Source of the DNA: a virus
Taxonomy: Duplodnaviria; Heunggongvirae; Uroviricota; Caudoviricetes
Virus record (IMG/VR): IMGVR_UViG_2529292921_000020
Direction: 5' to 3' (one strand)
DNA: 43,121 nucleotides
Position numbers and translations under genes: made by a program. The notes under the pieces were generated by a model, which searched no databases, was not told the DNA's origin, and was given only the letters and a program-made list of their open reading frames with translations. Shown piece by piece: positions 4,138-28,494 of the stretch (positions are counted from its first letter, which is position 1; each line of letters opens with the position of its first letter).

Positions 4138-6193
<2,056 letters not shown>

Positions 6194-6840
6194 TTATTTA
6201 ATAGCTCCCGTTCGTGTTTTCTCTTGTTAATGGCATCTTCAGTAAATACAGGGTTACTGATAGTGACACCAATTTCAAAACAACCTTCAGACGTATTAAC
6301 GTTTGGTAATAACGTTTCCATTATCGCGTCCTCAACAATGAATTTTGTGATGTGGTGCCTGGTGCCTCCAGGTGACGTTAACCAGTTAACAATTAACGCC
6401 GGATACAGAGAATCCACCCATAACACTGTTTTTGGTTTTAACTGTTCCGCGTGCGCTCAGCCGCATTCACCGCATCACAAAATTCACTTTAAAAACGGCG
6501 GCAGAGCAGTCACGGAGTAAAACTGATACCGCCAAACGTCACCAGAAAATTGATAACAGAGGGCGTTGCAGCGGGGTTGTCGCTTAAGCGTATGGTCAAC
6601 CTGACAACCCGGTGTCCTCAACGGGGAAGGAATAACCCCGCCATACTTACCGCCGCGCCATTTCGCGGAGTGCCACAACCGGAAGCGCACGGTCGAACTA
6701 AATTTAACGACACCGTACAGAGAGACCAATTTCGCCGTGCGCTTTCGCGTTATGCCCTGACTTTTCAGGGACATATCCTTTCAGTAAACTGTCAGTGCCG
6801 GATGTTCACCCGTGTCCGGCGCACGCACTCCACCTGACCC

Positions 6841-15967: not shown

Positions 15968-16327
15968 ATGCTCATAGATTTGGTTTTACCTTACCCGCCG
16001 ACGGTGAACACTTACTGGCGACGCCGTGGCAGCACATATTTTGTATCAAAAGTCGGTGAGCGTTATCGCCGTGATGTGGCGCTTATTGTTCGCCAGCAGC
16101 AACTGAAATTAAACCTGTCCGGAAGGCCGGCAATAGAAATTATTGCAGAGCCACCGGATAAGCGCCGTCGTGACCTGGACAATATCCTGAAGGCACCACT
16201 GGATGTACTGACGCATGCGGGGCTGCTCATAGACGACGAGCAGTTTGATGAAATTAATATTGTGCGCGGTCAGCTTGTTCCTGGTGGGCGGTTGGGGATA
16301 AAAATCACAGAACTGGAGTATGCATGA
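15968..16327 (+). CDS. rusA: Holliday junction resolvase RusA
   Basis: 119-aa ORF; conserved RusA motifs (RRRDLDNILKA, LIDDEQ, GGRLGIKITE). Confidence 0.85.
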   Translation: MLIDLVLPYPPTVNTYWRRRGSTYFVSKVGERYRRDVALIVRQQQLKLNLSGRPAIEIIAEPPDKRRRDLDNILKAPLDVLTHAGLLIDDEQFDEINIVRGQLVPGGRLGIKITELEYA

Positions 16328-17013
16328 ATAACCAGTATTTACAGTTTGTTCGTGAGCAACTCATGATTGCCACCGCCGATTTGAGTGGATCAACAAAAGG
16401 GCAGCTTGAGGCCTGGCAGGAGAATGCCATGTTTGATACAGGGCGTTACAGGCGTAAAAAAATCCGGTACCGCGATGAAGTGACTGGAAAAATGATAACG
16501 CGGGATAATCCACCAATCCCGGGAAAGCAATCGCTGGCGAAGGGGGCGTCAATTCCTCTCGTCAGTCCGGTTGAGTTTTTGACATCATCGTGGCGGCGGG
16601 CTGTTCTGTCTCTTGAAGAACATCATAAAGCCTGGTTGTTGTGGTGTTACAGCGGGAGTATTTGTTGGGAATATCAGATCGCGATAACACAGTGGGCGTG
16701 GAATGAATTTAATACTCAATCCGGTACCAGAAAAATTGCTGGGAAAACGCAGGAACGCCTGAAAAAATTAATCTGGCTGGCGGCGCAGGCAGTAAAAGCA
16801 GAACTTTTTGGTGGGGAAGGTTATGAATATCAGGAGCTGGCATTACTGGCGGGAGTGACAACTAAAAACTGGTCCAAAACATTTACTCGTCACTGGGTTG
16901 CAATGAAACACATTTTTCACCGACTGGATAGTGAGGCTTTATTATTTGTAATGAGAACACGTTCAAAACAAAAGGCGGCATTTTCAAAGCAAAGTGTTGC
17001 AAAAGTAGATTGA
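16324..17013 (+). CDS. Late-gene antitermination protein Q-like
   Basis: 229-aa ORF directly after rusA and before the promoter, terminator and tRNA-lysis region, the canonical Q position; family assigned by synteny. Confidence 0.6.
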   Translation: MNNQYLQFVREQLMIATADLSGSTKGQLEAWQENAMFDTGRYRRKKIRYRDEVTGKMITRDNPPIPGKQSLAKGASIPLVSPVEFLTSSWRRAVLSLEEHHKAWLLWCYSGSICWEYQIAITQWAWNEFNTQSGTRKIAGKTQERLKKLIWLAAQAVKAELFGGEGYEYQELALLAGVTTKNWSKTFTRHWVAMKHIFHRLDSEALLFVMRTRSKQKAAFSKQSVAKVD

Positions 17014-17208: not shown

Positions 17209-17284
17209 GGCCCTTTAGCTCAGTGGTGAGAGCGAGCGACTCATAATCGCCAGGTCGCTGGTTCAAATCCAGCAAGGGCCACCA
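17209..17284 (+). tRNA. tRNA with CAT anticodon (Met or lysidine-modified Ile2; ileZ-like position), CCA encoded
   Basis: Hand-folded cloverleaf: acceptor GGCCCTT / AAGGGCC, anticodon loop CTCATAA, T-loop TTCAAAT, 3' ACCA. Confidence 0.8.
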
Positions 17285-17285
17285 A

Positions 17286-17361
17286 CCGCCACTAGCCATC
17301 AGGAAAGAGCGTCAACCCTTTAAGTTGAGTGTGCGAGGTTCGAGTCCCCGGTGGTGGTCCA
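17286..17361 (+). tRNA. tRNA-like gene with atypical D-arm and anticodon loop (argN-like position); anticodon uncertain
   Basis: Acceptor CCGCCAC / GTGGTGG (one G-U), T-arm CGAGG-TTCGAGT-CCCCG, 3' TCCA; anticodon loop reads CCTTTAA with C at position 33. Confidence 0.5.
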
Positions 17362-17374
17362 TTATCGGTATTCT

Positions 17375-17448
17375 GCGTTGTTAGCTCAGCAGGACAGAGC
17401 AATTGCCTTCTAAGCAATCGGTCACTGGTTCGACTCCAGTACAACGCG
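17375..17448 (+). tRNA. tRNA-Arg (anticodon TCT, reads AGA); CCA not encoded
   Basis: Acceptor GCGTTGT / ACAACGC, D-arm AGCTCAGCAGGACAGAGC, anticodon loop CTTCTAA, T-loop TTCGACT. Confidence 0.8.
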
Positions 17449-17576
17449 CTACACTTATTTTCCCGGCTCGCTTTTGCGGGCCTTTTTTTTAAATGTCTCA
17501 CAATTCAGACGGTTGACAGTTGTCTGTTTTGCGGGGAGTTTGTTAAGTAAGCGACTCGTCAGAACCGTATTGATAT

Positions 17577-19148
17577 TTACTGAGAGCTCAGATCAACTTT
17601 CCAGGGCAACAGATCGCGTACCCGGTTTGCCGGCCAGTCCTGGATATGTTCAATGACGTAACGCAGCCACTTTTCTGGCTCCACATTGTTCAGACGGCAT
17701 GTGCCGATCAGCGAGTACAACACCGCCGCATGTTCACCACCGCTGTCGGAACCCGCGAACATCCAGTTTTTCCGGCCTACGGCCACTCCCCGTAAGGCGT
17801 TCTCTGCGATGTTGTTGTCGATTTCCACCCAGCCATTACTGCAGTACACGTTCAGTGCATCCCACTGTTTCAGCAGGTATGCGAACGCTTTTGCCGTATC
17901 TGAGTGACGCGACAGTGTTTTCATCTGTTGCTGTATCCAGTCATACAGTGACTGCATCAGTGGCGCGGCTCTGGCTTTTCTTGCCGCCAGACGCTGTTCT
18001 GCTGAACAGCACCGGACCTCTGCCTCGATGGCATACAGTTCACCGATACGCTGCAGGGCTTCCGTGGTGATGTAGGTGGGCGCTCTTGCATGCACATCGT
18101 GGATTTTTCTCCGGGCATGAGCCATACACGCGGCTTCCGTTATTCTGCCGGATTCGTATAACGCCCGGTAACCACCGTAAGCATCGGCCTGAAGCACACC
18201 GCTGTAACCGGCCAGGTGATTTTGTGGATGGATACCTTTCCGGTCCGGACTGTACGCGAACCAGACCGCCGGGGGCATCTGTGAACCGGCGTTACGGTCA
18301 TCACGGACGTAGACCCACAGCCGGGCTGTCCGGGTTTTACCGCTGCCCGGCTCCTGGACCGGGACGGGGATATCATCAGCATGGACTTTACCGGGCATCA
18401 GCACATACTGGCGCAGGACGTCATACAGCGGCTCCAGCAGTTCAGCAACAGCACCTGTCCAGCGCCCCAGTGTGGCACGGCTCAGCTCCACGCCCTGACG
18501 ACGGTATATTTCTGACTGGCGGTATAACGGCAGATGGTCTGCATATTTCCCGGTGACAACATGGGCCAGAAGCCCCGCTCCGGCATAACTGCGTGCAATG
18601 GGTTTTGAAGGTACTGGTGCCTGCACGATATGGTCGCACCGGCAACAGGCCTGTTTCGGACGTTGTGTTTCGATAACCTTAAAGGCGCTGCTGATAAGCT
18701 CCAGTTGCTCTGACACATCACATCCCAGAGAACTGAGTTCACCACCACAGGCAGGACAGCATTCCTCTTCCGGCCGGATAACCCGGGTTTCACGGGGAAG
18801 TGAGGCCGGTAACGGTTTACGGGCTGAAGACTGGCGCAGGGCGGATGGCAGTACCGGGTCATATTGCTCACCCAGCGTTTCCGCCATTTCTTCCTGAAGT
18901 GCGCTGATTCGCTCCTGTGCTTCCTGTATCTGCCGTTCGGTTTTTGCACGAAGTTTTTCTGAGCTTTTACCGAACTGCATACGTTGCAGTTTCGCAACCA
19001 GCGCCTTCAGCCGGTTGATTTCGGAAGCATAAGCCGCCACCCGCTGTGAGAGCAGGCGGTTGTATTCAGCCATCTGGCGGATGGTGTCCTGTTGCGTCTG
19101 CAACAGTGCCCGCAGGCGGGCGTTCTCATGAGCAAGTGAGGTGTCCAT
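17577..19148 (-). CDS. IS66-family transposase (TnpC)
   Basis: 523-aa ORF with N-terminal coiled coil, Cys-rich zinc-binding region and DDE core typical of IS66 transposases. Confidence 0.85.
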
Positions 19149-19167: not shown

Positions 19168-19515
19168 TTATATGCGGATTCCAGCGCGTTCCGTTCGTTT
19201 CGGGTGCTTCCAGTTGATACCTTCAAGAAGCATGGATAACTGAGCCGGAGTAAGGTGCACCTTGCCGTCACGGGTGACTGGCCAGACGAAGCGGCCCCGC
19301 TCCAGGCGTTTGGTGAAGAGGCACAGTCCGTCACTGTCAGCCCACAACACTTTTATCTGGTCACCCCGGCGTCCGCGGAAGATGAACAGGTGTCCGGAGA
19401 ACGGGTCATCCTTCAGGACGTTCTGAACTTTTGATGCCAGGCCGTTAAAGCCATTTCGCATATCGGTGATACCTGCAACCAGCCAGATACGCGAACCTGC
19501 AGGGAGAGATATCAT
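19168..19515 (-). CDS. IS66 accessory protein TnpB (Orf2)
   Basis: 115-aa ORF MISLPAGSRIWLVAGITDMRNGFNGL..., characteristic IS66 Orf2. Confidence 0.8.
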   Translation of the reverse strand: MISLPAGSRIWLVAGITDMRNGFNGLASKVQNVLKDDPFSGHLFIFRGRRGDQIKVLWADSDGLCLFTKRLERGRFVWPVTRDGKVHLTPAQLSMLLEGINWKHPKRTERAGIRI

Positions 19516-20192
19516 CAGTGGCTGCTCCCTTTTATTTCGCGGATAAGTGTCTGTAATAACGCCGGCGTCAGTTTACCTTTAAGCCTGAGAGTTCCGGCCG
19601 GCAGAACCAGCTCACAACACAGACTGTCGGACGGTGTATTTATCTGCTCTGGTTCCTGTGCGGGGGCCGGGATTTTATTATCCGGCTCCGGCGTTAACGT
19701 CACGGGAAGCAGTGCCGGCATATTTTTTCCGGAAGGCAGCAGGCCACCTTTCCGGTATTGATGGCGCCAGTTGAAGAGCAGGTTATCGTTGATTCCGTTT
19801 TCCCGGGCGATCTGCGCCACACAGGCTCCGGGCTGCAGTGACTGCTCCACTAAGGCGATTTTAAACTCATAAGGGAAGTTGGGCCGCCGGGGACGTTTTT
19901 TTACCACGGGGGCTTCGGATATAACGGTGCTTTCAGGACGTACGACTGGTACCGTGGAAAATTGTCCGTAAAGGCAGGCATCAAGTTCCTGCTCCGACAT
20001 GCCTGCGGGCAAAGGCCACGAAAGGCCAGCTCTCCGAAAGCGCACGAACATACTACAAACTGTTGATTTTGGTACACCCAGGCGACGCCCGGCCACAACC
20101 CGGGGTAAATGTTCTTCAAAGTGAAGACGTAAAGCTTCAGTGATCCAGGTCCGGTGTTTCATACGATAGTGTCCATTAAAAATGATGGACAT
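19515..20192 (-). CDS. IS66 accessory protein TnpA (Orf1)
   Basis: 225-aa ORF with N-terminal HTH, first gene of the IS66 operon, coupled to TnpB. Confidence 0.7.
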   Translation of the reverse strand: MSIIFNGHYRMKHRTWITEALRLHFEEHLPRVVAGRRLGVPKSTVCSMFVRFRRAGLSWPLPAGMSEQELDACLYGQFSTVPVVRPESTVISEAPVVKKRPRRPNFPYEFKIALVEQSLQPGACVAQIARENGINDNLLFNWRHQYRKGGLLPSGKNMPALLPVTLTPEPDNKIPAPAQEPEQINTPSDSLCCELVLPAGTLRLKGKLTPALLQTLIREIKGSSH

Positions 20193-20646: not shown

Positions 20647-22500
20647 ATGGCATTTAAATACTATGATGTTGTCAGGGCGGCGTCGCCGTCAGACCTTGCG
20701 GAAAAGCTGACACATAAACTGAAAGAGGGCTGGCAGCCGTTTGGTAGTCCGGTGGCCATAACCCCTTATACCCTGATGCAGGCGATTGCAGCAGAAGGTG
20801 ATGTGGTCGTCAGTGGTGCAACTGAGCCGGACTGGTTCTACGTGGTTGTGCTTGCCGGACAGTCCAACGGCATGGCCTACGGTGAAGGGCTTCCGTTACC
20901 GGATTCTTACGATGCTCCGGATCCGCGCATTAAACAGCTGGCGCGCCGCAGCACGGTAACTCCGGGTGGAGAGAGTTGTACGTATAACGACATCATCCCG
21001 GCTGACCACTGTCTGCATGATGTGCAGGATATGAGTACGCTGAATCATCCGAAGGCAGACCTGAGCAAAGGGCAGTACGGCTGTGTCGGCCAGGGCTTAC
21101 ATATTGCCAAAAAACTGCTCCCGTATATCCCGAATAACGCGGGGATCCTGCTGGTACCATGCTGTCGTGGTGGTTCGGCATTCACCCAGGGCGCGGAGGG
21201 GACATTCAGTGCGGACGCGGGGGCCAGCCAGGATTCGGCGCGCTGGGGGGTGGGTAAACCGTTATATCAGGACCTGATTGCGCGCACTAAAGCTGCATTA
21301 CAGAAGAACCCGAAAAATGTGTTGCTGGCGGTGTGCTGGATGCAGGGAGAGTTTGACATGAGCGCCGCCACCTACGCACAGCAACCTGCGCTGTTTACAG
21401 CCATGCTGAAGCAGTTTCGTGCTGACCTCACTGTGTTTAACGCGCAGTGTCATGGTGGCAGTGCTGTAAATGTGCCGTGGATTTGTGGTGACACGACGTA
21501 TTACTGGAAAAATACATACGCTACCCAGTACGACACCGTGTACGGCGGGTATAAAAACAGGGAGAGTGAGGGCGTTTATTTTGTGCCCTTCATGACAGAC
21601 GGTAACGGCGTCAATACCGCCACTAACGCACCGGCAGAAGATCCGGATATTCCGGCATCAGGATATTACGGTGCGGCATCGAGAACGAATGGAAACCAGG
21701 TATCATCAAACCGCCCGACACATTTCAGTTCATGGGCGCGCAGGAGCATTATTCCGGATCGTATGGCAACCGCTATTCTGAACGCAGCCGGGCGCACCTC
21801 AGCTTTCATCAGTGGTAAGGCACCGGAAATCAAACCCTCGCCCGGCGGCAACACGCCATCGGGGCCGTCTGAAGATGCATCCGTACGCACAATCTCCCTG
21901 TTGCCGACAGCCGGAGAGGCTGCTGCGCAGGGCTGGACCATTAAGGACGGCGGAATTCAGTTGTCGGGTGGTGTATTTAAGATCGCCAAGCAGAGCAATA
22001 AAACCTGGTCCCTGATGCATCCGGTGGATGACGCAGTCTCCCTGCTGACACGGGGTGGCAGACTGAGCTGTAAGTTTCGACTGTCAGGCGCACTGACCAA
22101 CAACCAGTTCGGCCTGGGAATTTATCTGTATACCGATGTAGCGTTACCTGACGTCGTGGCGATGACCGGGACTGGTAACCCGTTCCTGATGTCGTTCTTC
22201 ACCCAGACCACAGACGGCAAACTGAATCTGATGCATCACAAGAAAGCAGGAAACACAAAGTTGGGCGAGTTCGGGAATTACAGTAATGACTGGCAGACGC
22301 TGGAACTGGTGTTCACCGCCGGCAGTGCCACGGTTACTCCGAAACTGAATGGAGTGGCTGGCCCGGCATTCCAGGTCATAAAAGACAGTCTGACACTGGG
22401 GCTGAATGCGCTGACGCTGACGGATATTACCAAAAATGCAGCGTATGGCGTTGAGATAGAAAGTCTGGTGCTGGAGATAAATGCACCGGCATCATCATAA
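20647..22500 (+). CDS. nanS: Phage NanS-p-like sialate O-acetylesterase (DUF1737 N-terminus plus SGNH-type hydrolase)
   Basis: 617-aa ORF; N-terminus MAFKYYDVVRAASPSDLAEKL..., esterase block VVLAGQSNGMAYGEG; sits downstream of the Q-tRNA region where Stx phages carry this gene after stxAB. Confidence 0.7.
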   Translation: MAFKYYDVVRAASPSDLAEKLTHKLKEGWQPFGSPVAITPYTLMQAIAAEGDVVVSGATEPDWFYVVVLAGQSNGMAYGEGLPLPDSYDAPDPRIKQLARRSTVTPGGESCTYNDIIPADHCLHDVQDMSTLNHPKADLSKGQYGCVGQGLHIAKKLLPYIPNNAGILLVPCCRGGSAFTQGAEGTFSADAGASQDSARWGVGKPLYQDLIARTKAALQKNPKNVLLAVCWMQGEFDMSAATYAQQPALFTAMLKQFRADLTVFNAQCHGGSAVNVPWICGDTTYYWKNTYATQYDTVYGGYKNRESEGVYFVPFMTDGNGVNTATNAPAEDPDIPASGYYGAASRTNGNQVSSNRPTHFSSWARRSIIPDRMATAILNAAGRTSAFISGKAPEIKPSPGGNTPSGPSEDASVRTISLLPTAGEAAAQGWTIKDGGIQLSGGVFKIAKQSNKTWSLMHPVDDAVSLLTRGGRLSCKFRLSGALTNNQFGLGIYLYTDVALPDVVAMTGTGNPFLMSFFTQTTDGKLNLMHHKKAGNTKLGEFGNYSNDWQTLELVFTAGSATVTPKLNGVAGPAFQVIKDSLTLGLNALTLTDITKNAAYGVEIESLVLEINAPASS

Positions 22501-23284: not shown

Positions 23285-23818
23285 ATGAACGCAAAAATCA
23301 GATACGGCCTGTCGGCTGCCGTTCTGGCGCTGATTGCCGCTGGTGCGCCTGCGCCTGACATTCTCGACCAGTTTCTGGATGAAAAGGAAGGTAACCACAC
23401 CACGGCATACCGTGATGGCGCGGGTATCTGGACCATCTGCCGCGGTGCCATCCTGGTGGATGGCAAACCTGTCGTTCCGGGCATGAAGTTGTCGAAGGAA
23501 AAATGCGACCGGGTTAACGCCATTGAGCGTGATAAGGCGCTGGCATGGGTGGAGAAAAACATCAAAGTGCCATTGACCGAACCCCAGAAAGCGGGGATCG
23601 CGTCATTCTGTCCGTACAACATTGGTCCCGGTAAGTGTTTCCCGTCGACGTTTTACAGACGAATTAATGCAGGTGATCGCAGGGGAGCATGCGAAGCGAT
23701 TCGCTGGTGGATTAAGGACGGTGGCAGAGACTGCCGTATTCGCTCAAATAACTGTTACGGTCAGGTATTCCGTCGTGACCAGGAGAGCGCGCTGGCGTGC
23801 TGGGGAATCGACAGATAA
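23285..23818 (+). CDS. R: SAR-endolysin (phage lysozyme, R21-like)
   Basis: 177-aa ORF; N-terminal signal-anchor-release segment (LSAAVLALIAAGAPA) followed by lysozyme catalytic region (E...D...T context). Confidence 0.85.
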   Translation: MNAKIRYGLSAAVLALIAAGAPAPDILDQFLDEKEGNHTTAYRDGAGIWTICRGAILVDGKPVVPGMKLSKEKCDRVNAIERDKALAWVEKNIKVPLTEPQKAGIASFCPYNIGPGKCFPSTFYRRINAGDRRGACEAIRWWIKDGGRDCRIRSNNCYGQVFRRDQESALACWGIDR

Positions 23819-24012: not shown

Positions 24013-24459
24013 ATGATTAGTCAATTACCAAACTGGAAATTTTTGCTGGTCTGGAGCATCCCTTTTTTATGGGTAGTATCCCAGTTAATTGTGGCAATTA
24101 AGGGGTAGCTATGTCAGACAAACTCATAACGCCGGCAAAGGTCCTGTGTGTGATTGTCGGTATTTCATTTTCACTAATGCTGGTTGCTCTTTTTCTGTCC
24201 CTCGCCTGGGTGATGTTGTCTTCGTCGGGGCTGCTGGGGTGACAGTGACTGATGACATCAGCAGAGCGCTGGCTTTTGCTATTAAGTGGGTGGCTGTTGG
24301 TATTGCTGTGTCTCCGATGCTGTATGGGCTGGCAAAACTGGTCATTGCGCTGAAATCGTGAACTTTAAAAAGATGAGTGCTGAACTTATTCGGGCAATGG
24401 CATTTGCCATTCGTATTGTGGCCATTGCTGTTCTGGTCTGGGCAATCCGTTGGTGGTGA
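24013..24459 (+). other. Tandem array of four small hydrophobic peptide ORFs (24013-24108, 24111-24242, 24245-24361, 24373-24459; 31, 43, 38 and 28 aa)
   Basis: Back-to-back ORFs each encoding one predicted TM helix; ORF3 (TDDISRALAFAIKWVAVGIAV...) and ORF4 ([20 protein letters not shown]...) are clearly paralogous; ORF2 begins MSDKLI. Confidence 0.4.
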
Positions 24460-24460
24460 T

Positions 24461-24955
24461 ATGAACCGTGTTCTGTGTGTGGTGATTATTGTCATGCTGG
24501 TAGCCTGTGGTGTGCTTAGTCTGGGGCTGAATCATTACCGCGATAACGCCATCACCTACAAAGCGCAGCGCGATAAAAAAGTCAGTGAGCTGAAACTGGC
24601 GAATGCCACTATTACTGACATGCAGCAGCGCCAGCGAGATGTCGCTGCGCTTGATGCCAGATACACGAAGGAATTAGCCGATGCGAGAGCTGAAAATGAA
24701 ACTCTGCGCGCTGATGTTGCCGCTGGTCGTAAGCGCCTGCGGGTCAACGCCACCTGCCCCGGTACCGTGCGTGAAGCCACCGGCACCTCCAGCGTGGATA
24801 ATGCAACCGGCCCCCGACTGGCAGACACCGCTGAACGGGATTATTTCATCCTCAGAGAACGGTTGATGACAATGCAGAAGCAGCTGGAAGGGGCGCAGGA
24901 ATATATCCGCACTCAGTGCACTAAGCTGGCTTTTTATTATCCGGAGGATACATGA
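24461..24955 (+). CDS. Rz: Spanin inner-membrane subunit Rz
   Basis: About 165 aa from [19 protein letters not shown]-terminal TM then coiled-coil periplasmic domain; Rz1 is embedded in the +1 frame. Confidence 0.8.
24696..24866 (+). CDS. Rz1: Spanin outer-membrane lipoprotein subunit Rz1 (embedded in Rz)
   Basis: [15 protein letters not shown] lipobox followed by a Pro-rich mature peptide, entirely within the Rz coding region. Confidence 0.75.
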
Positions 24956-25374: not shown

Positions 25375-25635
25375 TCATTTCTCGTTATTTGTCATGCTGG
25401 CCGGGCGCAGATGCGTTGCATCTGTTGCCAGCCTTCTCCTGCAGGCTTCAATAACCCACGCTGAAAAGTTACCGGACCCTTTATGCTCAAGGGCGATGTT
25501 GATCTGTTCAATTATGTGATTGGGGAAACGGATATTGCGGGTTGTGGTTCTGCGGGTCCGGTTTTTCGATGACATATTTATTTCCTTTACTGATTGCCAT
25601 ATGACGGGGATTTTACATGGCTGAGCTTCGTACAC
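25375..25635 (-). CDS. Ribbon-helix-helix (Arc/CopG-like) DNA-binding protein
   Basis: Probable start MSSKNRT (near 25575); NIRFPNHIIEQINIALEHKGSGNFSAWVIEACRRRL fits the beta-strand/helix/helix pattern. Confidence 0.5.
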   Translation of the reverse strand: MYEAQPCKIPVIWQSVKEINMSSKNRTRRTTTRNIRFPNHIIEQINIALEHKGSGNFSAWVIEACRRRLATDATHLRPASMTNNEK

Positions 25636-25982
25636 TCCAGAGCAGAATCAAAACACTGAATACCCGACGGGTGAATATTCTGAAGGGGGAGCAGCGTCGT
25701 GTCAGTGGCAGTGCACGTGTTTCCCTCAAGCGTCATATCTGGCTGAGGGACGCCGGGCAGTGCTGTATCTGTGGTCGTGTGGTTGACCTCTGTGACAGTG
25801 AACTCGATCACCGAATTGCACTTCAGTTCGGTGGTGGTAATGAGGAGACGAATCTTTGGACGCTCTGTGCCGAATGCCATCGACAAAAGTCTGCTCGTGA
25901 AGCGGCGAGTGGTATGCCGGACCCGACGCTGCCGGAGGTGTCCGGAGGTAGTGGCAGAGAGGACGACATCATCGGACTGTAA
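25617..25982 (+). CDS. HNH endonuclease (terminase-associated)
   Basis: 121-aa ORF; CxxC...HRIALQFGGGNEETNLWTLCAECHRQK; immediately upstream of the terminase genes. Confidence 0.8.
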   Translation: MAELRTLQSRIKTLNTRRVNILKGEQRRVSGSARVSLKRHIWLRDAGQCCICGRVVDLCDSELDHRIALQFGGGNEETNLWTLCAECHRQKSAREAASGMPDPTLPEVSGGSGREDDIIGL

Positions 25983-26068
25983 CCCAACCCGGGGGGGGTA
26001 TCATCCGGCGTAAAAAACGATCGCTTTGGACACCGCGCCCCCTCTCACGCAGAGAAAAAATTCCCGTT

Positions 26069-26200
26069 TCAGGGCAGTTAACATGTTAACTGGCTGCCCG
26101 GGCATTTTTGCGGTTTTTATCTTTATTATTCAGTTTGTTGTGCGGAAAAAATGTTAACAGGCTTTTTCAGCAAATGTTAACCGGGCAGCAGTTAACATTT
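26069..26200. repeat. Repeated GTTAACAT / ATGTTAAC motifs upstream of the terminase small subunit gene (candidate terminase-binding or cos-proximal sites)
   Basis: cagGGCAGTTAACATGTTAACtgg at 26069-26093 (palindromic core), ATGTTAACAGG at 26151, AATGTTAACCGGGCAGCAGTTAACATTT at 26173-26200. Confidence 0.5.
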
Positions 26201-26272
26201 GCGGCATGAGACGCCGGGAAAAATGGGCTGAACCATACCCGGCTGAGTGCGTTCTGGACCCGGGAGGAGGCT

Positions 26273-26836
26273 GTGCTGACAACGCAAAAACGAAAATTTG
26301 CGCTGGCGCTCATGTCCGGGAAAAACAAAACAGCGTCAGCCATTGCCGCCGGTTATTCGGCGAAGACCGCCAGGGTTAAAGGCTCGCAGCTGGCAAAAGA
26401 TCCGGAGGTGCTTGCGTTTATAGCCCGTAAACAATGCGAGACGGTGGAGGTGGATGAGGTTCCTGTTTACCGGCAGAAAAAATCAGAGCAGGAGGATAAA
26501 CCCCGTCGCCGTGAGGCGGCTGCAATACCACAGCCGGACGAAAACAATCCGGAGATGCCACCGTCCGCGGTGATGTCTCCTGGTATTGAATATATGGAGG
26601 ATGGTCTTCCCGATCCGGTGAAAGCCATGGGGCGGATCCTGGTGGAAAACCTCTGCATTGATCCGAAACTGGCACTGGATGCGGCCTGGCGTCTGGCGCA
26701 GTTCACGCACCATAAAAAAGGGGATACCGGGAAAAAATCGGCAAAAGGTGATGCCGCGAAAAAAGCGGCTAACCGTTTTGCGGTGCCACCGCCACCCCGA
26801 CTGGTGGTGAATAACGATAATGAGGGCAACGGATGA
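26273..26836 (+). CDS. Terminase small subunit
   Basis: 187-aa ORF with N-terminal HTH (KTASAIAAGYSAKTARVKGSQLA) directly upstream of and overlapping the large subunit. Confidence 0.8.
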   Translation: MLTTQKRKFALALMSGKNKTASAIAAGYSAKTARVKGSQLAKDPEVLAFIARKQCETVEVDEVPVYRQKKSEQEDKPRRREAAAIPQPDENNPEMPPSAVMSPGIEYMEDGLPDPVKAMGRILVENLCIDPKLALDAAWRLAQFTHHKKGDTGKKSAKGDAAKKAANRFAVPPPPRLVVNNDNEGNG

Positions 26837-28494
26837 TACCTGTATGGAGCACAGCCTGCCCGGACTGGGCAGAGCGCCTGAAAAAGGGGCTGTCGATTAT
26901 TCCGGATCCGATTTATCCGGACGAGGCCGCACATGCCCTGGCGATTTTTAAACAACTGCGGATTGTGGATGCACCTGGTAGCCCTACGTTCGGGGAGTCC
27001 TGTGCACCGTGGGTGTTTGACCTGGTGGCGGCCCTGTTTGGCTCCTACGATGCGCAGACCGGTGTACGCCATATCAAGGAAGTTTTTATCCTTATCCCCA
27101 AGAAAAACTCGAAGTCCACGCTGGCCGCGGGGATCATGATGACTGCACTGTTACTGAACTGGCGGCAGGCGGCGGGTTACACGATTCTGGCCCCGACTGT
27201 GGAGGTGGCGGCCAACGCCTTCAACCCTGCCCGGGATATGGTACGACGTGACGATGATCTGGATGACCTCTGCCAGGTACAGACCCATATCCGGACCATC
27301 ACCCACCGGGTGACAGACACCACCCTGAAGGTGGTGGCAGCCGATCCGAATACGGTGTCCGGTATCAAGTCCGTGGGTACGCTGATTGATGAGTTGTGGC
27401 TGTTTGGCAAGCAGTGCAAGGCGGAGGACATGTTACGTGAAGCCATAGGCGGCCTTGCCTCCCGCCCGGAAGGGTTTGTGGTGTATACGACCACCCAGTC
27501 GAATGAACCGCCCGCCGGGGTGTTCAGACAGAAACTGCAGTACGCCCGGGATGTGCGCGACGGCAAAATTCATGATCCGCACTTTCTGCCGGTGATATTT
27601 GAACACCCTCCTGAAATGGTGGAAAGCGGGGCTCACCTGCTGATGGAAAACCTCGCCATGGTCAATCCTAATCTCGGCTATTCAGTGGATGAGGCCTTTC
27701 TGTACCGGGAGTACCGTAAAGCCCGGGAAGCCGGTGAAGAGACATTCCGGGGGTTCATGTCAAAACACGCCAATGTGGAAATTGGTCTTGCCCTGCGCTC
27801 TGACCGCTGGGCGGGGGCTGATTTCTGGGAAGAGCAGGGCCGTTGTATCAGCCTGGACGATATCCTGCGTCGTGCTGATGTGGTGACGGTGGGGATTGAC
27901 GGCGGAGGGCTGGATGATCTGCTGGGGATGTATGTGATTGGGCGTGACCGGGAGACCCGCGAATGGCTGGGCTGGGGCCATGCCTGGGCGCATGAAACCG
28001 CGGTGGTCCGACGGAAGAGCGAGGCGTCCCGGTTTCAGGATCTTGTTGCCTGTGGAGATATGACCATTGTCCGGCGTGTCGGGGATGACACGGCGGAAGT
28101 GGCGGAATATGTGCGTCGCATTCATGAGGCTGAGTTACTGGACCATATCGGTATTGACCCGTCAGGGGTGGGGCAGATTCTGGATTCACTGGCGGAAGCC
28201 GGGATCCCCGACGGAATTGTGGTGGGGATAAGCCAGGGCTGGAAACTGGGCGGGGCCATTAAAACCACCGAGCGCAAACTGGCTGAAGGGGTGCTGGTGC
28301 ATGGTGACCAGCCCCTGATGGCCTGGTGTGTCGGCAATGCCCGGGTGGAGCCTAAAGGTAACGCCATTCTTATCACCAAACAGGCCAGTGGACGGGGAAA
28401 AATTGACCCGCTGATGGCGCTGTTCAATGCGGTCTCCCTGATGTCCCTTAACCCGGAACCGAAAAAGAAAGAATATGCGGTTTTTTTCATATAA
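26833..28494 (+). CDS. Terminase large subunit
   Basis: 553-aa ORF with ATPase Walker A-like (ILIPKKNSKST), Walker B-like (LIDELW) and C-terminal nuclease region. Confidence 0.85.
   Translation: MIPVWSTACPDWAERLKKGLSIIPDPIYPDEAAHALAIFKQLRIVDAPGSPTFGESCAPWVFDLVAALFGSYDAQTGVRHIKEVFILIPKKNSKSTLAAGIMMTALLLNWRQAAGYTILAPTVEVAANAFNPARDMVRRDDDLDDLCQVQTHIRTITHRVTDTTLKVVAADPNTVSGIKSVGTLIDELWLFGKQCKAEDMLREAIGGLASRPEGFVVYTTTQSNEPPAGVFRQKLQYARDVRDGKIHDPHFLPVIFEHPPEMVESGAHLLMENLAMVNPNLGYSVDEAFLYREYRKAREAGEETFRGFMSKHANVEIGLALRSDRWAGADFWEEQGRCISLDDILRRADVVTVGIDGGGLDDLLGMYVIGRDRETREWLGWGHAWAHETAVVRRKSEASRFQDLVACGDMTIVRRVGDDTAEVAEYVRRIHEAELLDHIGIDPSGVGQILDSLAEAGIPDGIVVGISQGWKLGGAIKTTERKLAEGVLVHGDQPLMAWCVGNARVEPKGNAILITKQASGRGKIDPLMALFNAVSLMSLNPEPKKKEYAVFFI

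Follow-up and report, generated by a model that had tools for sequence, protein, structure and literature searches.

The 290-bp gap between hnh and terS (positions 25983–26272) of the window, by which we mean the whole 43,121-nucleotide stretch of DNA that was analysed, holds the cos site of a Stx-type lambdoid prophage, a conclusion supported by the virion ends of the near-identical Escherichia phage Lys8385Vzw, which serve here as a proxy. The gap contains five clustered copies of the 8-mer GTTAACAT that, judged from sequence comparison, most likely act as docking sites of the small terminase subunit (TerS). We consider it rather probable that the gap is an HK97-style, HNH-assisted cos with 3' overhangs in which these five half-sites would form a specificity element bound by TerS. 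This TerS-binding reading is favoured because of the clustering of the motif, its concerted change between lineages, its correlation with the TerS recognition helix, subsequent lookups of further TerS variants, and satellite-like loci in which a different TerS is paired with different repeats.

The window represents a Stx-type lambdoid prophage of E. coli, and its segment 25600–26900 is 93–99.7% identical to BP-4795, 2851, 1717 and many Stx1a/Stx2c phage records. A lysozyme gene (23285–23818), Rz (24377–24955) and a minus-strand DUF3950 gene precede hnh, which is located upstream of the terminase genes in the manner of an HK97-type module; further HK97-type genes encode a Phage_portal protein and a Peptidase_S78-Phage_capsid (protease-capsid) fusion. 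The large terminase subunit (TerL) shares 23% identity with HK97 gp2 over ~490 aa (E 2e-11), and no sequence similarity was detected between TerS and HK97 gp1 (TerS). At the equivalent position, Salmonella phage FSL SP-016 encodes an HNH protein 69% identical to that of the window, and the TerL proteins of both phages are 83% identical. The features of the region are collected in Table 1; the 290-bp gap before terS and the neighbouring HNH gene, both described in an initial annotation made from the sequence, are found there as claimed, the latter with a Pfam HNH domain.

Elsewhere in the prophage, a Q antiterminator gene (16324–17013) is followed by tRNA genes Met, Lys and Arg (17209–17449), IS66-family transposase genes (17577–19148 and 19515–20192) and a nanS-like DUF1737/SASA esterase gene (20647–22500). 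The prophage is stx-negative downstream of Q and the tRNA genes, the locus where Stx phages carry stxAB. The early region contains an IS21-type pair, consisting of an rve integrase-like transposase gene (4224–5246; Pfam rve, HTH) and a second ORF (5243–6025) that we take to be an IstB-like helper. Due to the IS21 pair and the IS66 insertion, the prophage may be defective.

Table 1. Features of the packaging region, in window coordinates.
Feature	Position	Strand	Description
hnh	25617..25982	+	HNH endonuclease, 121 aa; Pfam PF01844 (E 2.7e-7); PHROG 589 (E 1.8e-44)
G8 run	25991..25998	+	within the conserved upstream element CCCGGGGGGGGTATCATCC, ~40 bp upstream of the cut
cos cleavage site	26034..26043	+	CGCGCCCCCT, counterpart of the 10-nt 3' cohesive end in Lys8385Vzw
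Left-end core with A-tract	26044..26066	+	CTCACGCAGAGAAAAAATTCCCG
GTTAACAT copies 1–5	26077–26084, 26083–26090, 26151–26158, 26174–26181, 26191–26198	+, -, -, -, +	within 122 bp
Sites 1+2	26075–26092		perfect 18-bp palindrome CAGTTAACATGTTAACTG; two GTTAACAT half-sites overlapping by AT
T-rich spacer	26104..26147	+	IHF-like core ATTCAGTTTGTTG (26128–26140), candidate bend
Site 3	26151..26158	-	lone ATGTTAAC copy, inverted partner absent nearby
Sites 4+5	26170..26202		perfect 12-nt inverted repeat GCAAATGTTAAC-n9-GTTAACATTTGC
terS	26273..26836	+	187 aa; GTG start, Shine-Dalgarno GGAGGAGG; Pfam Terminase_2; PHROG 641
terL	26833..28494	+	HK97-type large terminase; Pfam TerL_ATPase and TerL_nuclease (PF03354, PF20441)

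The position of the cut derives from Lys8385Vzw, a phage induced from a STEC strain and sequenced, which PhageTerm assigned to the cos type with 3' cohesive ends, its cos being CGCCCCCCCT at the genome end (PMC7946995). The TerL of this phage is 97.6% identical to that of the window; the GenBank record of the phage terminates in ...GGACACCGCCCCCCCT and opens with CTCACGCAGAGAAAAAATTCCCG / CTCACGCAGAGAAAAAATTCCCGTTTCAGGGCAGTTAACATGTTAAC, a junction that corresponds to 26043|26044. These ends were mapped in the relative and not in the window prophage, with its IS21 and IS66 insertions. They support the cos-type packaging site proposed in the initial annotation, with the cut ~26–35 bp upstream of the interval then marked and the packaged left end beginning at 26044. 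Since the cut falls at 26043|26044, the repeat array lies between it and terS, at +34 to +155 from the left end of the virion DNA. Position 26037 of the cut site is polymorphic among close relatives. As regards a second end mapping, the phage collection yielded only Lys8385Vzw, the phi330 record having been rearranged to begin at terL. Two IMG/VR contigs (L036 and L056) end near the gap, but within the repeats and away from 26044; these ends resemble assembly breaks and were rejected as virion ends.

On both sides of the cut, the sequence from the G-run to the A-tract (~25990–26066) is kept whatever the type of TerS. A run of G6–G9 at the matching relative position is shared by 22 of 22 distant prophages of Enterobacterales and by the satellite-like loci described below, and the G8 run of the window may be cosQ-like or a contact for terminase or HNH. 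The A-tract core is likewise near-invariant across four E. coli lineages, the 22 distant prophages and satellite-like loci with other TerS proteins and repeats. Because it is common to lineages with differing TerS DNA-binding domains, this core is unlikely to be an element of TerS specificity. No sequence likeness was found between the window cos and that of HK97. In the PPompW prophages (LC567818, LC567822 and others), the IS110-family element ISEc20 is inserted at the conserved G-run (window position 25995), which splits hnh and part of the cos region from terS and may inactivate packaging.

Counting both strands, the 43-kb window contains six copies of GTTAACAT versus 1.05 ± 1.0 expected from shuffled sequences, and none of 100 shuffles reached six. 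Five of the six copies lie in the hnh-terS gap; by a rough estimate, the chance of so many sharing one 122-bp stretch of 43 kb is ~1e-9. The initial annotation had described the repeats as units opening with GGGCAG, one of them forming the palindrome GTTAACATGTTAAC. The recurring motif stands, with five clustered copies, and the palindrome is present and extends to the 18 bp listed in Table 1. The GGGCAG part belongs to the unit only loosely: GGGCA is found 5' of copies 1 and 5 and CTGCCC 3' of copy 2, and these flanks are not kept in sister lineages. That annotation did not include the 12-nt inverted repeat formed by copies 4 and 5, nor the correspondence of copies 1 and 2 to an ancestral terS start region, nor the restriction of the multi-copy array to some lineages.

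Two additional arrangements of the motif were observed in the window. Sites 2 and 5 with their flanks (26083–26101 and 26181–26198) form an 18/19-nt long-range inverted repeat, ATGTTAACTGGCTGCCCGG / CCGGGCAGCAGTTAACAT, whose pairing dominates the predicted RNA fold; it is lineage-specific and absent from L166 and L170. At 6377–6397, the sequence GTTAACCAGTTAACAATTAAC contains a pair of GTTAAC cores, 8 bp apart from start to start as in the cos palindrome, plus an ATTAAC. This GTTAAC pair (6377/6385) was considered as a related element and judged unrelated, lying within overlapping ORFs beside the IS21 pair and being probably a coincidence of coding sequence.

A first IMG/VR scan for TerS yielded loci with 79–99% identity, nearly all of them at least 94%. 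Among close relatives the 8-mers never vary, an observation of little weight with ~12 variable columns in the whole 200-bp stretch. More diverse relatives were drawn from a protein search and a GTDB scan. Three E. coli lineages possess the long gap and an identical five-site layout and spacing. In the window and in L166, whose TerS is 65% identical, GTTAACAT is present at all homologous sites, and [G/T]TAAACAT is found at the homologous sites in L170, L172, L181 and L165 (only the distal sites in L165, for which 92 bp upstream were available). Site 3 becomes ATGTTTAT in L170 and L181, changing together with the other sites, and sites 4+5 are kept there as AAATGTTTAC-n9-GTAAACATTT; L166 has an additional GTTAAC copy at sites 4+5. 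Among the sister lineages the spacing of the sites is constant, their flanks differ, and the sequence past site 5 diverges freely.

More distant relatives bear on the origin of the array. FSL SP-016 and 22 prophages of Atlantibacter, Kluyvera, Enterobacter, Citrobacter, Serratia, Erwinia, Pantoea and other genera encode TerS proteins 33–49% identical to that of the window. The hnh-terS gap of these short-gap relatives is usually only ~105 bp and strongly conserved, with the layout G-run, ...GGACACCGCGCCCCCTCTCACGCACAGAAAAAATTCCCCTCTGGAGGGTGTAAAC-ATGTTAACAGCG. In most of the short-gap loci examined, a near-palindrome, GTAAACATGTTAAC, overlies the terS start (ATG TTA ACA, encoding Met-Leu-Thr); L098 and L100 differ. 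BLAST aligns the window with FSL SP-016 up to the terS start of the latter, GTAAAC-ATGTTAACAG, so that sites 1+2 correspond to the start-codon region of the short-gap relatives and copy 2, by homology, to the ancestral terS start. Wherever the site of a short-gap locus lies on the terS start, the Leu2-Thr3 codons are TTA-ACA, with TTT-ACG in L101; they are CTG-ACR where the sites lie upstream (window, L166, L170, L098 and L100). Such codon usage suggests that the DNA sequence itself is under selection.

The homology of copy 2 to the ancestral terS start, together with the resemblance of the flanks of the copies to that start region (AAATGTTAACAGG versus AACATGTTAACAGC), would also be expected if the copies were functionless relics of a duplicated terS 5' end or start region (ATG TTA AC). 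Such relics should, however, decay independently, whereas all five copies share one variant per lineage and their spacing is constant even though the sequence after site 5 diverges freely. Moreover, arrays arose independently in L179, L180 and the satellite-like locus L176. We therefore regard relics without function as very improbable.

The arrangement of the sites varies within the phage family. L098 (1950–2000) and L100, relatives from Pantoea/Morganella with the TerS helix 'KTAKVKG' and the terS start ATG CTG ACA, carry their sites upstream of terS, as three direct repeats GT[T/A]AACCC 12–13 bp apart in L098 and as a single ATTAACCC in L100; site orientation, direct or inverted, is thus not fixed.

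This variation bears on whether the repeats act instead as RNA, i.e., as hairpins of the late transcript that would work as a terminator or attenuator or control terS translation, an explanation we judge fairly improbable. The RNA of 26044–26290 is more stably folded than shuffled sequences (z = -3.3), T-runs lie 3' of the first palindrome, and the L166 hairpin GGTGGTTAACATGTTAACCACC is directly followed by TTTT...TTTTTT in a terminator-like manner. The arms of both inverted repeats also change in a compensatory way between lineages, but such changes are expected from any symmetric protein sites. A consensus scan of the gap found no terminator, and only a weak minus-strand promoter-like match composed of the repeats themselves; an Rfam scan of the region gave no match at E <= 1. 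Site 3 lacks a local partner and still changes in concert with the others, the first hairpin of L170 is weak and AU-only, the repeats GTTAACCC of L098 are direct rather than inverted, and the short-gap relatives have one near-palindrome on the start codon and no U-run. Furthermore, the long-range pairing of the minimum-energy fold, between sites 2 and 5 and their flanks, is absent from L166 and L170, and a conserved RNA structure was rejected on the ground that the fold is stable but this pairing is not kept in sister lineages.

A coding function is even harder to reconcile with the array. Starting from the ancestral terS ATG, positions 26083–26157 could encode a small hydrophobic peptide, MLTGCPGIFAVFIFIIQFVVRKKC, to which the repeats would be incidental; the same 24 codons are open in the window and L166, and the TAA stop lies inside site 3. 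Nevertheless, this ORF is shortened to 14 codons in L170 and L181, has no PHROG match and is preceded by a weak Shine-Dalgarno sequence (CAGGGCA). The T-rich spacer gives Phe, Ile and Val codons in any frame, and the peptide leaves sites 4 and 5 unexplained, all of which makes it extremely improbable as the reason for the repeats.

The TerS-binding reading, in turn, is consistent with the predicted structure of TerS, which matches Pfam PF03592 (Terminase_2) with E 1.3e-8. In an AF2 model, residues 1–55 have pLDDT >93 and include helices 19–25 and 30–41. Foldseek matched this N-terminal domain to 4zc3 and 2cmp (TM 0.81–0.84), the top match being the DNA-binding domain of SF6 TerS (4zc3, TM 0.84, rmsd 1.6 Å). 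Helix 30–41, which contains residues 32 and 35, aligns with the HTH recognition helix of SF6.

The sequence of this helix varies with that of the repeats. TerS proteins with the helix 'KTARVKG' pair with GTTAACAT and those with 'KSARCKG' with TATAAACAT. Thr32 is found with TTAAC in the window, L166, L178 and L179 and in the short-gap loci L091 and L101-103 (there in the non-coding half-site); L098, of the same Thr32 group, agrees only in its GTTAAC core, and an ATTAAC copy is present in L100. Ser32 accompanies TAAAC in ~20 short-gap loci (in the non-coding half-site), in L170-type loci and in L180, and Cys35 accompanies TATAAAC...ACCC in two unrelated backgrounds (L170 and L180). The one exception is L094, which combines Ser32 with ATTAAC. 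Once the pairing had been seen, four more TerS variants that differ in their helix sequences were looked up, and all agreed with the residue-32 pairing: P0081 (Thr32) has ATTAAC-ATGTTAAC; in P0086 (Thr32) the gap is long and contains GTTAACATGTTAAC and additional ATGTTAAC copies; P0066 (distant background, Ser32/Cys35) combines TATAAACATGTTTATA with several copies of ATGTTTATACCC; and P0005 (Ser32/Cys35), whose TerS is 89% identical to that of the window, has a full TATAAACAT-type array. The repeats and the HTH codons lie <300 bp apart, so part of this correlation arises from co-inheritance of the repeats with the 5' half of terS, and linkage alone could produce it. The concerted identity of all copies within each lineage is the stronger argument.

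These same observations bear on the possibility that the repeats are bound by a protein other than TerS, such as HNH or TerL, a phage regulator, or a nucleoid protein of the host. In its favour, the hexamer GTTAAC is generic and symmetric, and hnh is likewise adjacent and co-inherited. However, the motif variant follows the recognition-helix residues of TerS across several clades, the four additional lookups fit as well, and a host factor would not account for lineage-specific motif switches within E. coli. Since, in addition, satellite-like loci without nearby HNH or TerL combine a TerS and repeats of their own beside the same core, we consider binding by a different protein unlikely.

The satellite-like loci, L167-L169 (~1300–1500), L174/L175 and L176/L177 (~1760–2017), were found in E. 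coli and Salmonella, with D5-primase, AAA_25, AlpA, SSB and a capsid-like 307-aa gene as neighbours. Their core is of the phage type (G-run, cut site and A-tract) and precedes private repeats, AAGTTACAC(CC), present in one to about six copies and both orientations, and a lone TerS gene; HNH and TerL are absent nearby. The C-terminal half of the satellite TerS resembles that of the phage TerS, and its HTH helix differs (KTARVKG[W/C]QL). This organization looks like piracy of HNH-cos helper phages by a TerS swap. A shared core combined with private TerS and repeats fits an arrangement in which TerL and HNH would act on the core and TerS on the variable repeats.

Extending this, we tentatively propose, as a possibility short of a probable conclusion, that cos is modular: a universal TerL/HNH core would be joined to a swappable cassette of TerS HTH and half-sites, in which Thr32 or Ser32 would set TTAAC or TAAAC, and the satellites would exploit this design. 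If so, lineages would diversify their packaging specificity by changing TerS and every repeat copy together, and satellites with a shared core and a private TerS/AAGTTACAC pair would represent a route of piracy undescribed in E. coli.

For the window, we propose the following mechanism. The lineage-independent core (G-run, cleavage site and A-tract; ~25990–26066) would be the substrate of TerL and HNH, and the five GTTAACAT half-sites (26077–26198) would constitute the specificity element, a functional analogue of lambda cosB. HTH domains of oligomeric TerS would bind the half-sites, thereby anchoring TerL at the left end for the start of packaging and positioning it for cleavage at termination. 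The T-rich spacer would probably bend the DNA, either intrinsically or via IHF, allowing one TerS oligomer to touch both proximal and distal sites. The array itself would have expanded from the single ancestral near-palindrome that overlaps the terS start in most relatives. A bending role of the spacer is plausible: its length, its T-tracts and ATTCA-n4-GTTR are kept in L166, L170 and L181, with divergent sequence in between. Its core ATTCAGTTTGTTG resembles the lambda H' core and has one mismatch to the IHF consensus WATCARNNNNTTR, a weak match of which there are 79 in the window versus 55 expected.

We found no description of a packaging-specificity element for these phages in the literature, and a full-text search for the palindrome returned no paper. 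The element is a previously undissected example of the well-known cosB-like kind, and the concept as such is ordinary. The family includes EHEC Stx1- and Stx2c-converting phages (BP-4795, 2851, 1717 and others) and has cos ends already mapped, and a defined TerS array would explain which DNAs can be packaged, including the mobilisation of virulence genes between prophages and by satellites. The array also offers a simple, testable specificity pair, T32/V35 with GTTAACAT versus S32/C35 with TATAAACAT; of the leads obtained, this pairing of TerS with its repeats and the satellite loci are of most interest. Beside lambda gpNu1 and the ring-threading TerS of HK97, a defined array would represent a third, HTH-type solution to cos recognition.

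In lambda, cosB comprises R3-I1-R2-R1 between cosN and Nu1, with I1 as an IHF site; gpNu1 has a winged HTH, and TerL alone cuts to leave 12-nt 5' overhangs. As in lambda, the window has short repeats of mixed orientation between the cleavage site and terS, here predicted to be bound by TerS, and a spacer (I1 in lambda, a T-rich and putatively bendable segment here) that divides proximal from distal repeats. Unlike lambda, it combines an SF6-type HTH in TerS (Terminase_2), 10-nt 3' overhangs by proxy, an HNH partner and unrelated repeats. The element would thus be cosB-like in function and, because of its Terminase_2 TerS with an SF6-type HTH and its 3' overhangs, stands outside the lambda cos family proper. 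The HTH fold and the Terminase_2 assignment are shared with SPP1/SF6 G1P, which recognises several repeated boxes. Those phages package by the headful (pac) mode with boxes on both sides of the cut, whereas the window has cos-type unique ends and repeats on one side only; the headful packaging of characterised Terminase_2 members does not apply here, a close relative having defined cohesive ends.

An HNH-assisted cos packaging module of the HK97 type was reportedly described by Kala et al. in 2014. HK97 is the only HNH-cos system to have been dissected; its TerS binds a single 15-bp site (+15 to +29) and threads the DNA through its ring, the overhang is a 10-nt 3' extension, and terS begins at +50 (PMC11331095). 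Like HK97, the window has hnh directly upstream of cos, a homologous TerL, a 10-nt 3' overhang and an A/T-tract beside the cut, and the terS start of its short-gap relatives lies similarly near the cut, at +40. The A-tract core is located at the position of the HK97 TerS site and could itself be the real TerS site. In contrast to the single site of HK97, five HTH-type candidate half-sites extend over ~120 bp in the window. Finally, satellites are known to redirect packaging, as with the SaPI TerS and in PICIs (10.1101/2022.09.08.507074). The satellite-like loci described here share this logic, by which helper TerL is redirected to satellite DNA, with a helper-type core, their own TerS and their own repeats, whereas the known E. 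coli PICIs use Rpp or a full set of capsid and terminase genes (cf-PICIs) rather than the swap of a lone TerS.
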